A stretch of 20,014 nt of DNA from Candidatus Wukongarchaeum yapensis (GTDB taxonomy: Archaea > Asgardarchaeota > Wukongarchaeia > Wukongarchaeales > Wukongarchaeaceae). Positions 1-10,379 of this stretch are shown in pieces. The notes beneath the pieces were generated by a model. That model made no database searches. It was given only the letters and a program-made list of their open reading frames with translations, and was not told the origin of the DNA. The stretch covers positions 1 through 20,014 of the forward strand of contig JAEOSI010000018.1 in NCBI GenBank assembly GCA_016840425.1, in the 5' to 3' direction. A program made the translations under genes and the position numbers. The first letter of the stretch is position 1; each line of letters starts with the position of its first letter.

Positions 1-618
1 GATTTGTATGTGATTAAAAATAGTGTATGCGTCTTTCATAAGAAGATTGGCGGTAAATATTGTGTGGATGCTGATCTTGTTTCTGGTTTTTTGTCAGCTG
101 TTGAGACGTTTTCTAAGGAGTTACGGGATCGTATTAGGGTTATTGAGATGGAACGGTTTAAGTTTGTTTATGAGGTTTCTGATTTGAATGGGTTTATTTT
201 TGTTGTTCAAAGTGATACTGAGGATGATTTGGAGGGGATTTATAAGCGTTTAAAATCGTTTAAGAGGTATTTTGAGGAGGAGTTTGATGGGGAGTGGGAT
301 CGTTGGAATGGTAGACTTCCCCCGAGGGCAAGGGCTGAAGATTTGACACAGAAATGGCTTGGAGGAGAAACTTTTAGGGGTAAAAAGGAGGATTTTTTGC
401 AGACTTTTGTGCCAGTTGCACGTTTGAGGCGTAGAGAGACCTTGTCTCCTGAGGAGGTTAAGGTGCTTAATTATGCGTTTTGGAGGGGAAGAATGCGTTT
501 GACTGATTTGATTAATGATTTACGTCTCCATGAGAATCTTGCGAGAGGAGTGGCTAATGGTTTGATTGAGAAGGGTTTTTTGAAAAGGGAGGATGTTAGT
601 GAAAGTATTAATACATAA
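1..618 (+). CDS. Longin-domain protein with C-terminal winged helix (Asgard-type eukaryotic signature protein); 5' end probably a few codons outside the window
   Basis: Frame is open from base 1 (DLYVIKNSVCVF). The segment DLVSGFLSAVETFSKEL..IRVIEMERFKFVY...FIFVVQSD.EDD...I.KRL..F..YF.EEF has the longin beta-beta-alpha-beta-beta-beta-alpha pattern. The C-terminal VPV...LSPEEVKVL...MRLTDLINDLRLHENLARGVANGLIEKGFL looks like a wHTH. Confidence 0.7.
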   Translation, partial: DLYVIKNSVCVFHKKIGGKYCVDADLVSGFLSAVETFSKELRDRIRVIEMERFKFVYEVSDLNGFIFVVQSDTEDDLEGIYKRLKSFKRYFEEEFDGEWDRWNGRLPPRARAEDLTQKWLGGETFRGKKEDFLQTFVPVARLRRRETLSPEEVKVLNYAFWRGRMRLTDLINDLRLHENLARGVANGLIEKGFLKREDVSESINT

Positions 619-691: not shown

Positions 692-1489
692 ATGCAGGAT
701 TCTTCATTGTTTTTAGACATGCTTGAGGAAGTGGCGAATCAGAATAATAGTAGGATAATTTTGGCTTTGGATGATGTGGTTTGTTTTCCTTCGGATAGGG
801 AAGGGTTGAAAAGGGTTAGGGAGGAGGCTGTTTCAAGGGCTTTTAAGCTCATTGAACTTCTTTCTGATTTGATAGCGGGAGTGAAGATTAATAGGCAGCT
901 TGTTTTGCCTTTGGGTCTTTATGATTATGTTTTTGAGATAGTGGATTTTGCCCATGGTTATGGGTTGCCGTGTATTGCTGATTGCAAGGTAGGAGATGTG
1001 GGACATACTAATCGATGGATTGCTACGCACTATTTTAATGCTGGTTTTGATGCTATTATAGCTAATCCTTTTGTGGGGTGGCGTGGAGGGTTGGATTCTG
1101 TTTTTGATGAGGCTAGAAAAAGGGAAAAGGGCGTTATATTGCTTGTTTATATGAGCCATGCTGGGGCCTTGGAGGGGTTTGAGAAGGTTGTTTTAGATGA
1201 AGAGGGGAGCGGTCAGCCTTTCTATTTAGTTTTTGCTAGAAAAGCGGTTGAATGGAAAGCTAGCGGTATTGTTGTTGGCGCCACGTTTCCGGGAAAGATT
1301 ATAGAGGTAAAGGAGATAGTAAAAGAAGAATCTATCCCGATATTTTCTCCAGGGGTAGGAGCTCAAGGAGGTAGTGCGAGGGAGGCAGTTGAGGCGGGAG
1401 CGGATTATCTTATTGTTGGGAGGACGATAATTTCTTCCTCTGACCCGCGGGAAACCGTTAAAAAACTCTTAAAAGATTGTTCATTATAA
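692..1489 (+). CDS. pyrF: Orotidine 5'-phosphate decarboxylase
   Basis: Motifs RIILALD, active-site IADCKVGDVGHTN (DxKxxDxxxT), VVGATFP, SPGVGAQGG and IVGRTI. ATG at 692; the ORF track starts at the preceding TTG at 689. Confidence 0.96.
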   Translation: MQDSSLFLDMLEEVANQNNSRIILALDDVVCFPSDREGLKRVREEAVSRAFKLIELLSDLIAGVKINRQLVLPLGLYDYVFEIVDFAHGYGLPCIADCKVGDVGHTNRWIATHYFNAGFDAIIANPFVGWRGGLDSVFDEARKREKGVILLVYMSHAGALEGFEKVVLDEEGSGQPFYLVFARKAVEWKASGIVVGATFPGKIIEVKEIVKEESIPIFSPGVGAQGGSAREAVEAGADYLIVGRTIISSSDPRETVKKLLKDCSL

Positions 1490-1536
1490 TGAAAAAGCTA
1501 GATTTACCAATTTTTTGAGAGTTATCGAGGGTTTAG

Positions 1537-2211
1537 ATGTTGGGAAAATTGAGGCGAAAGCAGAGGATAATGTTTAGTTTGTTATTTGTGATTATTTTTG
1601 TTGTGGCGGTTTTTTCTGTTCAAAGTTTTGGGCAAAACGTTCAGGCAAATGGAGGGGAATTGGAGCCGGGAGATGTTGTTGAGGGTTATCTTGATGGTTC
1701 AGACGTTTTAGAGAATTATGATGTTTATTTGGTAGTTTTAGAGGAGGGGAAGAATTATGCTTTTCAGATCCAAGCCTTTGATGATGATGATTTTGATATT
1801 TATCTTTTAACTGAAAATTATTCGAATCTTCCTCCAGATCCTGATATTAGCACGAGGATTAATGAGGAGCTTGAAGAGTATCTTATAGCCTATTCGAATC
1901 AGACTACGGACTCTTCTACTGTGGATAGGATTGTTTGGGAGGCTGATAATAGCGGTGAGTATTATATTTGTCCCATAGCTAAGGAGGGAGAGAAGGGGAA
2001 GTATGAACTAAAGTTTGATATCACGGGAGGAATTTTGCCTATTATACTAATAGGAACGATTTTTGTCGCACCTTTTCTTGCCTTATTATTATATTTAAAT
2101 AGGGGTAAAAAGAAGCCCCCTCAAAAATATTGCATTAAATGTGGAGCGGAACTTTTAGAAGGCGCAAATTTCTGCATTAAATGTGGAAAAAAAATTTGGG
2201 GTTATAGGTAG
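1537..2211 (+). CDS. Membrane-anchored surface protein: N-terminal signal/TM, acidic PPC-like beta-sandwich, TM helix, C-terminal zinc ribbon
   Basis: Hydrophobic IMFSLLFVIIFVVAVFSV. PPC-like pattern DVYLVVLEEGKNYAFQI....DDDFDIYLL...SGEYYI.......GKYEL. Second TM ILPIILIGTIFVAPFLALLLYL, then KKK and CIKCG-x9-CIKCG. Confidence 0.75.
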   Translation: MLGKLRRKQRIMFSLLFVIIFVVAVFSVQSFGQNVQANGGELEPGDVVEGYLDGSDVLENYDVYLVVLEEGKNYAFQIQAFDDDDFDIYLLTENYSNLPPDPDISTRINEELEEYLIAYSNQTTDSSTVDRIVWEADNSGEYYICPIAKEGEKGKYELKFDITGGILPIILIGTIFVAPFLALLLYLNRGKKKPPQKYCIKCGAELLEGANFCIKCGKKIWGYR

Positions 2212-2270
2212 AAATTTTTGGTTTTTTTTGGTTTTTTGTTTGTGATTGTTTGTTTTTTTGTTTTGTGGTG
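2212..2270 (+). terminator. Long T/G-rich tract between convergent genes (probable U-tract terminator of the + strand gene)
   Basis: 59 nt with repeated T runs and no C, starting directly after the stop at 2211. Confidence 0.5.
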
Positions 2271-2798
2271 TTAACGGTCGAAGAATGGGCTCTTGCCTGT
2301 TGCTGCGAGGGGTATGCCTATGATTATGTCGGCTTCTTCTAGTATTTTTAGCTGTTTTGCCGCGGCGCCTACCTTGTAGATTATTCTGTTGTCTACGTTA
2401 TGGATTTGAGCTGTTTTTACGGCAGATCCGAGGGCTATTCCTAGGTCTAAAATTTTGAAGGCGCAGAAAGGCCCTTTAAAGTCGCGAGCGTCTTCAAATA
2501 AGGTTTTTTTAAGTTCTTCGCATGTCATTCCGCAGGCGCCGCAATCAAGGCCGACCGGTTTTCGTCCTCTTACCCCCAAAATTATTAAAGATTGGGCAGC
2601 GTCTATGCTGTTTGCGTCTCTTTCCCAATTTTTTCCTCTTTCTTCGGCTAGTTCACGCATCTTTTTCGCTATTTCTTCTTTTTCTTTTTCACTTGCTATT
2701 TTAAATAAAACATCATCTTTTCCTCTTGTTTTTGGAGCGGTTTTTGCTGAAATTAACATTAAACTGGCTACATCATTAACAGCTTTTTCGAGAGACAT
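2271..2798 (-). CDS. DUF2148-like ferredoxin-domain-containing protein (COG4739-like)
   Basis: Family-typical motifs SAKTAPKTRGKDD, WERDANSI, LDCGACG..C...GPFCAF...DLGIALGSAVKTA..HNVDNRI.Y..G.AA and GKSPFFDR. GGTGA RBS upstream of the ATG. Confidence 0.85.
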   Translation of the reverse strand: MSLEKAVNDVASLMLISAKTAPKTRGKDDVLFKIASEKEKEEIAKKMRELAEERGKNWERDANSIDAAQSLIILGVRGRKPVGLDCGACGMTCEELKKTLFEDARDFKGPFCAFKILDLGIALGSAVKTAQIHNVDNRIIYKVGAAAKQLKILEEADIIIGIPLAATGKSPFFDR

Positions 2799-2902: not shown

Positions 2903-5032
2903 TTAAGGAGAATTAGTTGTTTCTGTGGTTTCTTTACTGTTTTCGTTTTCTTTTTTTTGTTTTATCTTTTCGAGGGGTTTTAGGGTTTTTCCTTTGATTT
3001 TTGAGCCGCAAGATGGACATTCGCCTTTGGTACGTAAATATTCGAGCAAGTGGGATTTGTGAGCGGGTTTATTGCATTTTGGGCAGACTTTTGCGTCTTC
3101 ACCGTTTTGTATAGGGTTATTGCACACGCTGCACCAGGGGATTTTTTCTTTGCATGAACTACACTTTTCTTCGACAGCGAGGGTTAATTCACCGCACCAG
3201 TAACATTTAGCTCTGAATCGTGGATCTAGTGGATGGGGGCCCGACTCTATTATCAGTTTGTTGTTTTCTATTTTTCCTTTGAAGATTCCTTCTCCTAAGA
3301 GAAGGGAGTACATGAGTACTACTTCGTCTTTTGGGAGACCTAATTTTTCAGCGATTTGTTTTATTTTGATTTCTTCTTCGTCCTTTAAAAGGTCTGTAAG
3401 TTCTTGAAATTTGCCTCCTAGCTCTTTTGGGGTACGGGCGACTAAAATTTGTGGTGGATTTGGTAGATGGAACTCATTATTTACGATGTCAACGGTTATG
3501 ATACCTTGGCTTATTAATTTGTAAATCTCGCATTGAACGTTTTCCCTTGGGGTTTTAAGTAGATTTGATAGGTTTTTTGGATTTAGTGTAGATTTTCCAA
3601 GCATGTAGCCTAAAATTGTGCGGGTGGTTTCTGGGAGGGAGTAGAATGGTGGTGAAAAGGGGTTAGGCGGTCGGTATTCTAATGTGAATGTTCCGTTGGT
3701 CATTTGGCCTTTTATGAAGTTTTCAGCAAGGAGATCATAGATAATGTTTTCTTCTTCATTTTCTGTTATTATTTTTCTTTCTTCTTCTGGGCTTTTATTA
3801 GTGCATGAGATGAGGAGTTTACGTATAAAGCTTGTTGTCAAGGTTTTATGTGCGATAATCGCCCCTAAAGTTATGAGTTCTTTTTCGTTGAGTTCGCGTG
3901 AGTAAGGGCTGGGAAGTTTTGGGGGTTTTTTCAAAACGAAGATATCATCTTTGTTTATGAAACCGTTAATAATGCCGTAGAGTAAGAGGTCAAATATTAA
4001 TCTTAATAGGTCTATTTCTGCCACGTTGAGCTTTTTCTTCATTTGTTTTATGGGTATTGATTTATAGGCAATTATCATTCCTGTTACTTTTTTATGGGAG
4101 TCACTTAGTTCTTCAATATCCATGGTTTGGCTTATTTCTGAAAGATTTTCCAGGCGGATTTTATCTTCTTCAAAGTATACGTTTATTGTTCCGTCACAAG
4201 CCAGGGAGTATATGTTTTTTCTTAAGGTTAATTCGTCTTGAGATATGAGATGAGATGCTTTTTTGACTTCAATTTCCTTGTATGCTACTAAAAGACCCAC
4301 CACATCTCTAAGTCCGCCTTCTAAAAGATAGGGATCTACGGGTAGCTGATCAAAAGATAGTTTTTCTAGGGAGAAGTCTTGCTTTTCTCTAAATTTTCCT
4401 GTTATGGTGCCTTCAGCAACAAGTCTGAGCAAAGTTGAAATTACGTCTTTTTTATCTCTTCCTAAAAGCTCTGATAATTTACGGATATTCTGGAGTTCAT
4501 GGGTTAATAATAAGCCTATAAGTTCTTTTTCTTCAGGTTCTAACTCGTTTAAATCCCGTGGAGAACTAACAGTTACGAAATCTACCAGAAAGAAGCCATT
4601 TTTAGTACAGATAGCGCATACAGATTTGGAAGCTAAGCGATAAATTACATCTAATATTTCCTCGTTTTTTAGGGAGAGTATTTTCCCTATTTCGCTTACT
4701 TTAATACCATCAGGATGACTCATCAAAAGACCCAATACTTTTATCTCTTTTTCAGAGAGATCGGAAAAATCGGCTCTTAAGGGGCCGATTTTAAAGCTTG
4801 ACACGATGAAATTATTACCCTCATATTTGCCGCTTAAAACGCCATTTTCAGGACCAATAAGCAGTTTGAACAGTTCTGAGACCTGTTCTTTTTTAAGATC
4901 AAGTAATTTGGCCAAGGTTTTTGCTTCTAAAGCTCCATAGATGGTAGCATACCCTATAAACCTCATAATTTGAAGATCGTTAAGCCATGGAACCCTTGAC
5001 TTAATTTGTTCTTGAAGTGTTTCTACTATCAT
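2903..5032 (-). CDS. Protein with eight tandem PCI-like winged-helix repeats and a C-terminal zinc ribbon + RING-like finger
   Basis: Eight ~72-85 aa units of the form L...E...LG....H....I..L...L......V...IY.L...G.I.G.F....F.L, followed by CYWC-x10-CSSC and CSVC-x12-CPKC-x4-H-x2-H-x10-CPSC. ATG at 5032 has GGTGA 7 nt upstream; the ORF track starts at the TTG at 5035. Confidence 0.8.
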   Translation of the reverse strand: MIVETLQEQIKSRVPWLNDLQIMRFIGYATIYGALEAKTLAKLLDLKKEQVSELFKLLIGPENGVLSGKYEGNNFIVSSFKIGPLRADFSDLSEKEIKVLGLLMSHPDGIKVSEIGKILSLKNEEILDVIYRLASKSVCAICTKNGFFLVDFVTVSSPRDLNELEPEEKELIGLLLTHELQNIRKLSELLGRDKKDVISTLLRLVAEGTITGKFREKQDFSLEKLSFDQLPVDPYLLEGGLRDVVGLLVAYKEIEVKKASHLISQDELTLRKNIYSLACDGTINVYFEEDKIRLENLSEISQTMDIEELSDSHKKVTGMIIAYKSIPIKQMKKKLNVAEIDLLRLIFDLLLYGIINGFINKDDIFVLKKPPKLPSPYSRELNEKELITLGAIIAHKTLTTSFIRKLLISCTNKSPEEERKIITENEEENIIYDLLAENFIKGQMTNGTFTLEYRPPNPFSPPFYSLPETTRTILGYMLGKSTLNPKNLSNLLKTPRENVQCEIYKLISQGIITVDIVNNEFHLPNPPQILVARTPKELGGKFQELTDLLKDEEEIKIKQIAEKLGLPKDEVVLMYSLLLGEGIFKGKIENNKLIIESGPHPLDPRFRAKCYWCGELTLAVEEKCSSCKEKIPWCSVCNNPIQNGEDAKVCPKCNKPAHKSHLLEYLRTKGECPSCGSKIKGKTLKPLEKIKQKKENENSKETTETTNSP

Positions 5033-5134
5033 CAAAATATCACCAAAAGGAAAAGCCCTAATATTATTAACGAAGATATTTATAAAAAATCCTTTGATTT
5101 TTTATATTCTGGATAATTATGTGATTTAATAAGG

Positions 5135-5870: not shown

Positions 5871-6482
5871 TTAGGTCTCTTGGAGGATTATTTTAAGGAA
5901 ATATTCGTGGAATCGGGTGTCATCGGTAAGTTCGGGATGAAAAGCGGTGGCAAGTATGTTTTCTTGGCGGACTGCAACAACAATATCTTCTAACCTTGCT
6001 AAAATTTCAACGTTTTCTCCTATTTCTTCTATGGCAGGAGCGCGTATAAAAACGCCTTTGAAAGGTTTATCGCCTAAAATGGGGACGAGGAGGTCTGTTT
6101 CAAAACTTTCTCTTTGTCTGCCAAAATAGTTACGCGAAACGGTAACATTTAGAAGGCCTAAAGTAGGCTGATTTATCTCCCCGACCACCCGATCGTAGAC
6201 GTTTCTAGCAAAAACAATTAATCCAGCACAGGTTCCAAATAAGGGAACTTTTTTGGAAGAGAGCTGTTTAATGGTAGAAAAAACGTTTAAACGGGAAGAA
6301 ACTTTCCCAAAAACAGTACTTTCTCCACCTGTGATTATAAGACCGTCAAGTCCCTCTATTTCTTCAGGCTTTTTAACGACTAAAACTTCGCCTTTTAAGC
6401 TAAGCTTTTCTAAAGCGTTCTCTGTGATATCGACATGTTCTTCTAAATCGCCTTGTAATCCAAGAACACCTATTGTAACCAC
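5871..6482 (-). CDS. pdxT: Pyridoxal 5'-phosphate synthase glutaminase subunit
   Basis: IGVLGLQGDLEEH, GGEST, FGTCAGLI (catalytic Cys), RNYFGRQRESF, FIRAP and AFHPEL (His-Glu). GGAGG RBS before the GTG. Confidence 0.97.
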   Translation of the reverse strand: MVTIGVLGLQGDLEEHVDITENALEKLSLKGEVLVVKKPEEIEGLDGLIITGGESTVFGKVSSRLNVFSTIKQLSSKKVPLFGTCAGLIVFARNVYDRVVGEINQPTLGLLNVTVSRNYFGRQRESFETDLLVPILGDKPFKGVFIRAPAIEEIGENVEILARLEDIVVAVRQENILATAFHPELTDDTRFHEYFLKIILQET

Positions 6483-6556
6483 CGTTTTGTAACCTCCTTA
6501 AAAAATTAGGTTAGATTTTGTTCGATGAAAGAGTTAAATAGAAGAGGGGTCTTTTT

Positions 6557-7540
6557 CTAGATTTTTGAGCCTCTTTCTTGCATTTTTAATTCGAGGTCGT
6601 GTATGTCTAACCCGGGCATAGCTTTTGTCTCGAGGACCATTTTTTGGGCTTCTGCCACTATTTCAGGGTCTTCCCAATAGGAAACTGCAAGAACCATGGC
6701 ATTAGCACGAATTTCAGGGTCGCTCGATTTGTAAATACCTGACCCCACAAAAACACCGTCACATCCAAGGGACATTAAGAAGGCAGCGTCACTGGGAGTC
6801 GCTATGCCGCCGGCTGCAAAATTAACGACAGGTAATCGCCCTAATTTCGCTGTTTCTTTGGCTATGTCATAGGAGACTTTTAGTTTTCTTGCAGTTTTTA
6901 TTAATTCTTGGTCTTCATCGATTATTGATGTCAGCCAGCGTGTTTGGTTATTTAATTTTTTTATGTGTCTGACTGCTTCTGCTACATTTCCTGTACCGGG
7001 CTCGCCTTTAGTTCTTATCATTGCAGCGCCTTCTTCGGTTCTTCTTAAAGCTTCTCCAAGATCCCTTGCACCGTTGACAAAGGGCGTTGTGAAGTCCCAT
7101 TTCCATATGTGTCGCTCTTCGTCGGCGGGGGTTAAAACTTCGCTTTCATCAATCATGTCAACGCCTAAGACTTCTAGGACCTTGGCTTCGTAGGTGTGGC
7201 CTATCCTGCATTTAGCCATTACGGGGATTGTTACATTGTCAAGTATATCTTCAATAATTGTTGCACTGGCGGTTCTTGCTACTCCTCCTGCCCGCCTGAC
7301 ATCGGCGGGGAGCTTGTCCAGAACCATGATGGCGGTGGCTCCAGCATCTTCTGCGATCTGTGCTTGTTCAACGCTTGTAACGTCCATTATTACGCCGTGT
7401 TTGCACATCTTGGCAAAACCGCGCTTAACGCGGACTGTGCCGCGTGTTAATTGTGACTTTCCTAAAAATGTTTGAACTCTTCCATAGTTTATTATTTTCT
7501 CCATTTTGTTAAACGACTCCAAATAATGATAAACTGTCAT
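6557..7540 (-). CDS. pdxS: Pyridoxal 5'-phosphate synthase lyase subunit
   Basis: [60 protein letters not shown] and [12 protein letters not shown]. It carries the long archaeal-type N-terminus. Confidence 0.97.
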
Positions 7541-8944: not shown

Positions 8945-10240
8945 TTAACTTGGCTCTTCCTCGCCTGTCTTCTTTTTTAAACGTTCTTTAACAAATTCGT
9001 CGTAGGCGATAATTATCATTACTGCAAGAAGGGAGTTTATTGCAAAAATGATTAAACCGTAACTTATGACTATGTTCCACATAAAAACGCTGATCATCTT
9101 TGACTCCAGGGGCTCGTAGGTTAGGAATATTAGCCATAAAGGCATTCCTATCACAGGTCCAAATATCGGGGAAAGCCACCCTAAGTTGACACGTTTGATG
9201 TTGCCTTCGCTTTCACCTAGAATAAATAATGTAAGGCCTATTGTTATAACTATGAGGAGGAGACTTAAGACGTAGAAAATGTTTCCGTTAAAAGCGTAGA
9301 ATTTTGAGAGGGATTTATGGGCAAAAAAGTCTTCTATTGCCCGAAGACTATTTCCAGTTATAGAACTTCCTAAGGGACCACTATCTATTTTGGAGAAGCC
9401 TAGTTCTTTTGCTCCAAAGAAAATCCATCCCAAGATAAATACAAGGGGAGCTATGCAAAATCCTATCCCTATATTTTTGATGACCCTCCATTTTGCAACA
9501 TCTTTTTTCAGAGTTGTTGTCGATAAAACTAAGAGGGAAGAGCATAGGACCAAGATCGAGATCAGAAAAACGACATCTAAAGTAATGGACCCTAAATCCC
9601 AGTTGTAAGCACTTTTCATAGCATTTTTGTAACCCTTATCTTCAGCAAGATTTCTTACCCAATAGCTCGTAAATACCGCCACCACTCCGAGAATCCCACA
9701 GGCTATACTTGTTAATTTAAGGGCGATTTTAGAACCAAAATCCGCATACGCTAAAAACCCGGTTAATATACATGCAGGAATGTAAAACATCCATAACGAT
9801 AAAGGACTAATATGCCAACTTTCAGGAACGCCCGCGCCAGCAATAGTACCTATTATAAAACACCCGTAAAAGTTTTTAGAAATAGCAGACCCAGCAAGGG
9901 CTAAAGCAGGAGCTATCGATAAAGCAAGAGGTATGTAAACCGAACCGATATCAACGGATAACTCAAAAAATTCTACGATAAACGCCAAAAAGCCGAAAAT
10001 AAGGACGATAAATAAAGATTCAACGGTAAAAAAATTAATAACGCTGAAAAAACCTTCCTCCCTGGTCATTAAAAGTTTTTTAGGAGCTTCAGCTTCAGAG
10101 ACTTTCTTTTTCAATACTTTTAACTCACCTTCAAGCTTTTTCCTCTCCTCTTTGATCCCACTAGCAGATAATTCACCAGATTCAACACTTTCTTTAAACT
10201 CCTCAAGCAATTTTTTCACGTCATCAAAATCACTACTCAA
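8945..10240 (-). CDS. Uncharacterised polytopic membrane protein (~10 TM) with an N-terminal charged helical (SHOCT-like) segment
   Basis: Long ORF with about ten hydrophobic segments. N-terminus DFDDVKKLLEEFKESVESGELSASGIKEERKKL. TTG at 10240 follows a GGTGG RBS-like element; the ORF track start at 10267 is an alternative. Confidence 0.75.
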   Translation of the reverse strand: MSSDFDDVKKLLEEFKESVESGELSASGIKEERKKLEGELKVLKKKVSEAEAPKKLLMTREEGFFSVINFFTVESLFIVLIFGFLAFIVEFFELSVDIGSVYIPLALSIAPALALAGSAISKNFYGCFIIGTIAGAGVPESWHISPLSLWMFYIPACILTGFLAYADFGSKIALKLTSIACGILGVVAVFTSYWVRNLAEDKGYKNAMKSAYNWDLGSITLDVVFLISILVLCSSLLVLSTTTLKKDVAKWRVIKNIGIGFCIAPLVFILGWIFFGAKELGFSKIDSGPLGSSITGNSLRAIEDFFAHKSLSKFYAFNGNIFYVLSLLLIVITIGLTLFILGESEGNIKRVNLGWLSPIFGPVIGMPLWLIFLTYEPLESKMISVFMWNIVISYGLIIFAINSLLAVMIIIAYDEFVKERLKKKTGEEEPS

Positions 10241-10379
10241 CCTTAACCACCCGAATATACAAAACATAAAAAATGAAAAAACAATTTTTATGCTAAGTTT
10301 GTTAACCCCTCCTATTTTTTAACTTATTCGTTAAAAAAACCTCATTTCAACAAAAAGGGAAAAAATCAGGATGCTTATA

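Follow-up and report, generated by a model that had tools for sequence, protein, structure and literature searches.

Several subunits of the eukaryotic intraflagellar transport complex A (IFT-A) and of the GATOR2/SEA complexes carry a zinc finger followed by a RING domain (ZnF+RING) as their tails, and the origin of these tails is part of the open protocoatomer question. In the SEA complex the RINGs heterodimerize and "clearly play a structural role" (PMC9646525). The zinc-binding domains of IFT-A lie at subunit interfaces, and zinc chelation destabilizes the complex; one of these proteins, IFT144 (WDR19), holds two zincs and carries a degenerate third site, the first site being NZF-like and the second resembling the RNF146 RING (PMC10066299). 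In archaea, the small RING finger protein (srfp) of Caldiarchaeum is an active ubiquitin ligase (E3) that requires I30, W58, and R69 (PMC5654768). Asgard RING ligases, the ubiquitin operon, and srfp are already known, and a 2026 preprint reports RING-type E3 ligases among Asgard-eukaryote structural clusters and is silent on a ribbon+RING module. Among about 8.4 million papers and preprints we found none that joins an archaeal family to the tails of IFT144, IFT122, WDR24, MIOS, or the SEA proteins. Here we describe a 710-residue protein of Candidatus Wukongarchaeum yapensis (Asgardarchaeota) that ends in such a ribbon and RING. It is encoded on the minus strand of a 20,014-nucleotide stretch of DNA, hereafter the window (contig JAEOSI010000018.1, our C152); the source genome is 2.16 Mb, 92% complete, and 38% G+C. 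New are the eight-winged-helix mount of the tail and the conservation of that arrangement.

A three-zinc module behind winged-helix repeats

Direct reading of the minus-strand open reading frame (ORF) gives the C-terminus as RFRAK-CYWC-GELTLAVEEK-CSSC-KEKIPW-CSVC-NNPIQNGEDAKV-CPKC-NKPA-H-KS-H-LLEYLRTKGE-CPSC-GSKIKGK, with the spacing CxxC-x10-CxxC-x6-CxxC-x12-CxxC-x4-H-x2-H-x10-CxxC. The tail is a three-zinc module, in which a C4 zinc ribbon and a six-residue linker precede an eight-ligand cross-brace RING of a C4H2C2 variant; the division into two subdomains follows from the agreement of sequence and structure. The parts of the gene are listed below in window coordinates.

2903-5035, minus strand: whole gene, a 710-residue ORF with a TTG start at 5035 and its stop codon at 2903-2905 (ORF list and translation)
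3242-4978, minus strand: eight tandem winged-helix domains (PCI/TrmB/MarR-like), the mount of the tail, at residues 20-81, 95-154, 167-226, 241-298, 312-370, 384-454, 469-523, and 541-598 (Pfam, AlphaFold 2 [AF2], and Foldseek)
3152-3205, minus strand: C4 zinc ribbon, CxxC-x10-CxxC by direct reading; zinc site 1 is C611, C614, C625, and C628
3134-3151, minus strand: six-residue linker KEKIPW between ribbon and RING (direct reading)
3008-3133, minus strand: cross-brace RING finger (C4H2C2), with zinc site 2 formed by C635, C638, H659, and H662 and zinc site 3 by C651, C654, C673, and C676
2906-3007, minus strand: Lys-rich, low-confidence C-terminal extension, residues 677-710, with a predicted local distance difference test score (pLDDT) below 50 at 692-710

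The 12 ligands (numbering checked) run from C611, with its codon at 3203-3205, to C676, with its codon at 3008-3010, and positions 3008-3205 on the minus strand bound them exactly. A 709-residue database homologue begins at the ATG at 5032, and a 99%-identical database record is titled "RING finger protein [Candidatus Wukongarchaeota archaeon]." The Cys/His spacing is exactly as claimed in an earlier note on this DNA. That note had also described a zinc ribbon followed by a RING, a C-x2-C-x4-H-x2-H register that differs from RING-H2, and a mount of winged-helix repeats rather than an alpha-solenoid. Each of these descriptions holds: the same register shift occurs in Caldiarchaeum srfp (PMC5654768), and Pfam finds winged helices in the body, where AF2 models eight such domains.

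Modeled by itself in AF2, the tail gives a confident structure (pLDDT 90.4, predicted template modeling score [pTM] 0.77), with the ribbon formed by two-strand knuckles at pLDDT 90-95. Ligand order and spacing are compatible with a cross-brace, and the predicted model has the RING/U-box fold. HMMER alignments to RNF24 and EL5 place the two His of the family at RING-H2 ligands 5 and 6, and ligand 3 falls on the second Cys of CPKC; we therefore read the register as C4H2C2, not C3H2C3. The residue directly after the last Cys, G677, occupies the "linchpin" position. A short query also gave a match to PRDM9 C2H2 fingers (KSHLL...TGE.P), repeat-summed and not significant for any single domain, which we judge to be chance.

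We aligned 27 homologous modules from the source genome and other Asgard genomes. No module departs from C635, C654, H659, H662, C673, P674, or C676, and conservation reaches at least 90% at C611, C614, and C638; C638 is present in 26 of 27 modules and C651 in 23. Overall, the ribbon ligands are kept in 24-25 modules, and the RING ligands are either invariant or kept in at least 23. The ligand pattern is thus no chance arrangement, since it is conserved across this alignment and the module recurs within the genome, the phylum, and sequence clusters. About nine further copies of the tail were found in the source genome (E values from 2e-16 to 2e-2 for the tail against its own genome), and the module occurs in 293 of the 400 Asgard genomes searched, with scored copies per genome reaching at least 13. 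A profile of the 27 modules, searched against 1.84 billion representatives, recovered 7445 clusters at E≤1e-3, of which 1163 reach E≤1e-10. Word-indexed searches returned only three near-identical Wukongarchaeota proteins, and the distant family was reached by whole-genome and exhaustive profile searches. Language-model neighbors all scored below 0.9, and we treat these as leads only.

The module is typically terminal: of the 150 hits listed, 137 have no more than 20 residues between its end and the C-terminus, and the remainder are mostly multi-copy. The bodies that precede it among the clusters scanned include beta-helix/NosD, VWA+PKD, solute-binding, TPR, and PCI/winged-helix types; the few clusters with names provide examples from Lokiarchaeia and Thorarchaeota. 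The Thorarchaeota members of about 1000 residues were considered as propeller-solenoid proteins and rejected, as they show weak FG-GAP signals only and resemble membrane receptors, not protocoatomers. In the source genome itself the paralogues have unrelated bodies: TPR (contig C104), a HEAT/ARM solenoid (C139), a YGGT...DGGY-repeat membrane protein (C57), and small single-pass membrane proteins (C181, C197, C117, and C257), in addition to a 116-residue small RING (C109). The C139 paralogue (1306-2598, plus strand) has HEAT/ARM repeats (HEAT_2, 2e-62), then a ribbon reduced to one CxxC knuckle, and then the RING; the C104 paralogue (894-1829, minus strand) has TPR repeats (TPR_1, 3e-26) followed by ribbon and RING. 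This solenoid-then-RING order corresponds to the C-terminal two-thirds of the protocoatomer layout. In four paralogous tails (C181, C57, C139, and C197) the third ligand pair reads T-P-C-C in place of C-P-x-C, and IFT144 of the kinetoplastid Leishmania tarentolae (PDB 8f5o_F) likewise has TPCC where it aligns with this pair.

Likeness to the tails of IFT-A and GATOR2/SEA

The tail resembles coat-complex tails by sequence and by predicted structure. With the single tail sequence as the query against PDB, the C-terminus of human WDR19/IFT144 was the best match (9e-6), followed by WDR24 (4e-3), WDR59 (0.04), and MIOS (0.6). The 27-module profile gave stronger values in the same database: IFT144 9e-9 (positions 13-90), Leishmania tarentolae IFT144 3e-8, MIOS 1.3e-6 (residues 1023-1102), WDR59 2.2e-6, WDR24 4e-6, and IFT122 5e-5. 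The RING-H2 ligases RNF24, EL5, Arkadia, RNF165, and RNF4 also matched (2e-7 to 9e-7), but over positions ~40-90 only; ribbon, linker, and RING were covered together solely by coat-complex tails. The ribbon aligns with zinc site 1 of IFT144 (CPFC...CPGC), and the alignment identifies the degenerate site of IFT144 as RING site 1, a site still present in the archaeal module.

Structure comparisons point the same way. The top 20 Foldseek matches in PDB are all IFT-A or GATOR2/SEA chains, and the two-domain unit superposes on IFT144 with a TM-score of 0.64-0.69 and a root-mean-square deviation (rmsd) of 2.7-3.0 Å over 81-84 columns. Scoring of the whole module placed IFT144 first, 1.5 Z units ahead. 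Among Swiss-Prot models the order was WDR19, dyf-2, WDR59, WDR24, Rtc1/Sea2, and IFT172; in the AFDB fold clusters archaeal RING proteins lead, followed by IFT121-like and WDR19 entries, and in the ESM Atlas WDR19/IFT121 clusters lead the shape search. Among solved and Swiss-Prot structures, the whole two-part module was matched only by IFT144, IFT122, IFT121, IFT172, WDR59, WDR24, MIOS, and Sea2-4. Like those tails, the archaeal one has a ribbon directly followed by a RING at the C-terminus (611-628 and 635-676 of 710 residues), is similar across both subdomains, and superposes as a rigid body. The combination of beta-propeller and alpha-solenoid is not present in the body of the 710-residue protein, nor was it seen in the paralogues of its own genome, some of which have TPR or HEAT solenoids ahead of the tail.

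These sequence and model comparisons support membership of the tail in the coat-type ZnF-RING class, with IFT144, not MIOS, as its nearest relative. The class assignment made in the earlier note is thereby borne out by profile and fold searches. Its choice of MIOS/Sea4 as the closest relative is not: IFT144 leads by sequence (9e-9 versus 1.3e-6) and by structure, and in the Swiss-Prot fold search MIOS does not appear among the first 30 matches. A special closeness to MIOS over generic RINGs is in part contradicted: the RING half is as near to RNF24, EL5 (2e-7), Prok-RING_1, and zf-RING_2 as it is to MIOS. Matches to the Pfam models for the tails of MIOS and WDR24/59 are weak and below cut-off: the 710-residue protein scores 12.9 versus 27 bits for zinc_ribbon_16, and the best E values over the 27 modules are 4e-4 for zinc_ribbon_16 and 1.4e-5 for zf-RING_16; the IFT121 model Zf_2nd_IFT121 is likewise below cut-off, with a best value of 2.8e-4.

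What this likeness means for the origin of the eukaryotic domains is a separate question. Tentatively, and at somewhat less than even chances, the Asgard tail may be the direct prokaryotic ancestor of the protocoatomer-derived ZnF+RING domains of IFT-A, GATOR2/SEA, and possibly HOPS/CORVET and COPI. Under this proposal the module would ancestrally have been an active, modular ligase handle carried on many scaffolds, including alpha-solenoids; eukaryotes would have fused the tail behind a propeller-solenoid, repurposed it as glue, and lost zinc site 2 in IFT144, and the 710-residue protein would be a pre-eukaryotic UFL1/PCI-like scaffold ligase. The competing explanation is convergence or shared generic ancestry, such that the coat tails are not specifically Asgard-derived, and a ribbon beside a RING is indeed common in prokaryotes (Prok-RING_1 with Zn_ribbon/DZR). 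We consider this somewhat unlikely, given that full-length matches with the same six-residue linker and with non-Cys identities were seen in PDB only to coat-complex tails, that IFT144 stands 1.5 Z units ahead on the whole-module score, and that the first non-archaeal matches in three other structure libraries are IFT144, IFT121, WDR59, and WDR24. If the homology is true, an archaeal source becomes identifiable for one building block of eukaryotic coat, nutrient-sensing, and ciliary-transport complexes, and that source keeps three zinc sites and the predicted surface for the ubiquitin-conjugating enzyme (E2) intact. The disputed point of whether the eukaryotic tails were once ligases or were always structural would then be testable in a simpler system.

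A putative ubiquitin ligase tail on a winged-helix scaffold

The statement of the earlier note that Asgard archaea encode ubiquitin, a ubiquitin-activating enzyme (E1), and an E2 is matched by the source genome, in which we found ubiquitin, E2, and E1-like genes. The E1-like candidates are three ThiF-family genes, on contigs C63, C232, and C119; the others are as follows.

C109:16045-16278, source genome: ubiquitin gene, product ending in LGG
C109:16387-16737, source genome: small RING, 116 residues, between the ubiquitin gene and the ubiquitin E2 variant (UEV)/endosomal sorting complex required for transport (ESCRT) genes
C135:1186-1668, source genome: E2 with HPN...Cys

The E2 is conserved in 78 of the 121 Asgard genomes sampled, at least two of which (G106 and G110) have a small RING within about 1 kb of it. 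Along C109:16045-19997 the gene order is ubiquitin, small RING, coiled-coil, UEV-like, and further genes. The UEV-like gene has the HPN motif and Ser in place of the catalytic Cys. The further genes we take, from reading their sequences, to be Vps28-like and Vps22/25-like (ESCRT-I/II-like), that is, the Asgard ubiquitin-ESCRT arrangement. The small RING matches the tail of the 710-residue protein (E 1.7e-8, 38% identity over the RING) and clears Pfam cut-offs (zf-rbx1, 33.2 versus 31 bits; zf-RING_2, 31.6 bits).

We consider it plausible, and on balance probable, that the tail is a ubiquitin ligase handle, an E3 of the RING type, because of its fold, its homology to active RINGs, the conserved E2-contact positions, the distribution of the module over many bodies, and the presence of a ubiquitin pathway in the genome. 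All 27 modules match Pfam zf-RING_2. The predicted E2-contact positions, which with the variable linchpin position correspond to those required in active Caldiarchaeum srfp, are V/I637 in 26 of 27 modules, W666 in 24 (Tyr in the 710-residue protein), and P674 in all. A catalytic handle on varied substrate binders would be expected as a C-terminal module on diverse N-terminal parts, such as receptor-like ectodomains, TPR, HEAT, and winged-helix arrays.

For the whole protein, the reading that we favor with moderate confidence as the best joint explanation is a winged-helix scaffold with an E3 tail that is the archaeal counterpart of the IFT-A/GATOR2 ZnF+RING domains. The gene product would be a cytosolic scaffold of eight winged-helix domains with the three-zinc module at its end. 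The RING surface, in which V637 follows the first Cys, the helix contributes Y666, and P674 lies in the last CPxC knuckle, may dock a ubiquitin-charged E2, while the winged-helix array would hold a substrate or partner complex. The zinc ribbon, rigidly packed on the RING, may be an accessory element. The module would correspond to the ZnF+RING domains of IFT-A and GATOR2/SEA, with IFT144 the nearest and, unlike in IFT144, all three zinc sites intact. We infer E2 binding, ubiquitin transfer, and the nature of the substrate from these features. A complex prediction of the tail, with three zincs, and the genome's E2 scored 0.24 against a mark of 0.32, without controls, and we weigh it neither way on binding.

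Several observations weigh against ligase activity. The 710-residue protein has Gly at the linchpin, not Arg or Lys, and Tyr666 in place of the usual Trp; across the modules the linchpin position 677 is Gly in eight, Lys in seven, Gln in four, and Arg in three. The tail misses the Pfam RING cut-offs (zf-RING_2, 23.5 versus 27.3 bits; Prok-RING_1, 26.9 versus 29.1), although one orthologue (P0066) clears that of zf-RING_2 with 27.4 bits. The 20-kb window is free of ubiquitin-system genes, and none adjoins the seven full-length orthologues examined. Finally, in the nearest eukaryotic structural relatives the module is inter-subunit glue and not a demonstrated ligase (PMC9646525, PMC10066299).

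The main rival is a structural assembly module, in which the tail would be noncatalytic and would homo- or heterodimerize with paralogue tails or partners, tying the scaffold into a larger complex. The closest solved structures, the C-terminal domains of Sea2/3/4, MIOS/WDR24/WDR59, and IFT121/122/144, are such modules, with the heterodimerizing RINGs and chelation-sensitive interfaces described above, and the source genome has about nine tails that might pair. The missing linchpin Arg/Lys and the absence of genomic linkage to ubiquitin genes also fit. We nevertheless rate a purely structural role as unlikely: unlike in IFT144, strong conservation keeps all eight ligands of the RING as well as the predicted E2-contact positions, the RING half resembles active RING-H2 ligases just as closely, and a paralogue lies in the ubiquitin gene cluster. 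Moreover, many family members are single-pass and receptor-like, and a ligase tail explains these more simply. Dimerization and E3 activity are not mutually exclusive.

The full-length AF2 model (pLDDT 80, pTM 0.64) has eight H-E-H-H-E-E units within residues 20-598 and the Cys-rich module at 608-680. The best Pfam match on the body is PCI (3e-13), with further winged-helix matches to HVO_A0114, TrmB, MarR, and HTH_36. The array is most similar in Foldseek to UFL1-DDRGK1 (8b9x, 6.5e-6), with TFIIIC tauB, a UFL1-60S complex, SelB, and RPC62 also matched. It is net acidic (isoelectric point [pI] 5.6), with one of the eight domains clearly basic, and we therefore favor a protein scaffold over a DNA binder. 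A nucleic acid-binding regulator, with TrmB/MarR/PadR-like winged helices as the DNA or RNA binders and with a generic zinc finger, unconnected to ubiquitin, as the Cys-rich tail that adds affinity or dimerizes, would account for those winged-helix Pfam matches, for the likeness to the TFIIIC tauB, SelB, and RPC62 arrays, and for an AFDB relative auto-named as a PadR-domain protein, but is very improbable given the acidic array, a best Pfam match that is a protein-scaffold winged helix, a best fold match to UFL1-DDRGK1, and a tail with a true RING fold and conserved predicted E2-contact residues.

One orthologue clears the Pfam E3_UFM1_ligase cut-off (25.5 versus 23.2 bits). However, the UFC1, Ufm1, and UFL1 Pfam families were not found in the 92%-complete source genome. 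We accordingly take the UFL1 likeness of the body to be structural only.

The scaffold with its RING tail is not confined to one genome. Full-length collinear orthologues (22-29% identity over 460-724 residues) were identified in seven other genomes from three further GTDB families, and for this reason the architecture of eight winged helices plus tail is itself conserved, in at least four Asgard families (f1, f8, f10, and f31). Eight PCI/UFL1-like winged helices with a RING constitute an undescribed architecture.

Gene neighborhood and comparison with known systems

The 20-kb window otherwise encodes an orotidine monophosphate decarboxylase family (pyrF-like) protein, DUF2148, ATP-grasp, PdxT/PdxS, TFB, an intein-bearing MCM, and CTP synthase. 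Features of the window and one recurrent neighbor in other genomes are as follows.

1-618, plus strand: longin/roadblock-like plus winged-helix protein
1537-2211, plus strand: 224-residue protein with N-terminal and C-proximal hydrophobic segments and a C-terminal C4 ribbon (Zn_Ribbon_1, 1.9e-8), without a RING
5871-7540, minus strand: PdxT (SNO) and PdxS (SOR_SNZ), beside the RING gene
8945-10267, minus strand: 440-residue ORF with no Pfam match at E≤1e-5 and 84% identity in a same-genus genome
11998-17100, minus strand: 1700-residue MCM helicase with intein sequence (two Intein_splicing stretches, a LAGLIDADG endonuclease, and HTH_3)
L076:6606-8471, L082:6352-8289, L083:6788-8647, L074:2-895, and L081:1096-2910, orthologue loci in other genomes: ~620-residue protein

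Two other genomes, both of one genus, have a homologue of the longin-like protein (24-26% identity, E 1e-13 to 7e-15) adjoining their RING orthologue (L083:3892-4497 and L076:2028-2729, both on the plus strand). In one of these the homologue is directly upstream of the RING orthologue, on the same strand, with a gap of 29 nucleotides. The longin protein and the eight-winged-helix RING protein could be a functional pairing, judging from gene order. At five other full-length orthologue loci no longin homologue was seen, and the same-genus contig ends before that position. PdxT/PdxS also lie beside orthologous or tail-bearing genes in four genomes (G055, G045, G082, and G399; loci L076, L082, L084, and L086); this adjacency is conserved synteny with no obvious functional link. 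The ~620-residue protein, which has a hydrophobic N-terminal segment, is encoded near the RING orthologue in five genomes, which belong to two families, either directly downstream or no more than 3 kb away; no homologue was detected in the 20-kb window.

The RING-H2 ligases (RNF24, EL5/ATL, Arkadia, RNF165, and RNF4; zf-RING_2) are C3H2C3 versus C4H2C2 here, with CxxC as the third pair and His as ligand six, and they have no ribbon ahead of the RING. Prok-RING_1 (PF14446) is the best-scoring Pfam RING family for the tail (26.9 bits) and is matched by 24 of the 27 modules (best 1.9e-9), but the match spans only profile positions 7-33 of 54 and the family is mostly bacterial. The archaeal srfp of the ubiquitin operon, known from Caldiarchaeum and represented in the source genome by the small RING at C109:16387-16737, shares with the tail the CxxC-x4-H-x2-H register, a conserved I/V, a W, and CPxC. 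At about 90-116 residues, it has an N-terminal G-x-W-x-W segment in place of the ribbon and lies beside ubiquitin, E2, and UEV genes, whereas the 710-residue protein carries the ribbon and sits among housekeeping genes. With 710 residues against the 90-120 or so of small RINGs, the protein falls outside the srfp group, although the RING domains are homologous.

Like the body described here, UFL1 (the UFM1 E3 ligase) has a long PCI-like winged-helix array in a ligase scaffold; it is without a RING, and its global TM-scores against the body are low. The GATOR2/SEACAT tails (WDR59, WDR24, and MIOS; Sea3, Sea2/Rtc1, and Sea4) superpose on the archaeal tail with an rmsd of 7-10 Å, indicating that the orientation of ribbon and RING differs, and the bodies of these proteins are beta-propeller plus alpha-solenoid. 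The closest counterpart is IFT144, with IFT122 and IFT121 alongside it. In IFT144 the linker KNSIPY matches KEKIPW in length and is similar in sequence (HMMER alignment), but RING site 1 has been lost (the second Cys and both His). There the module, which follows beta-propellers and TPRs, serves as glue between subunits, whereas in the archaeal protein it stands behind winged-helix repeats and keeps all three zinc sites.

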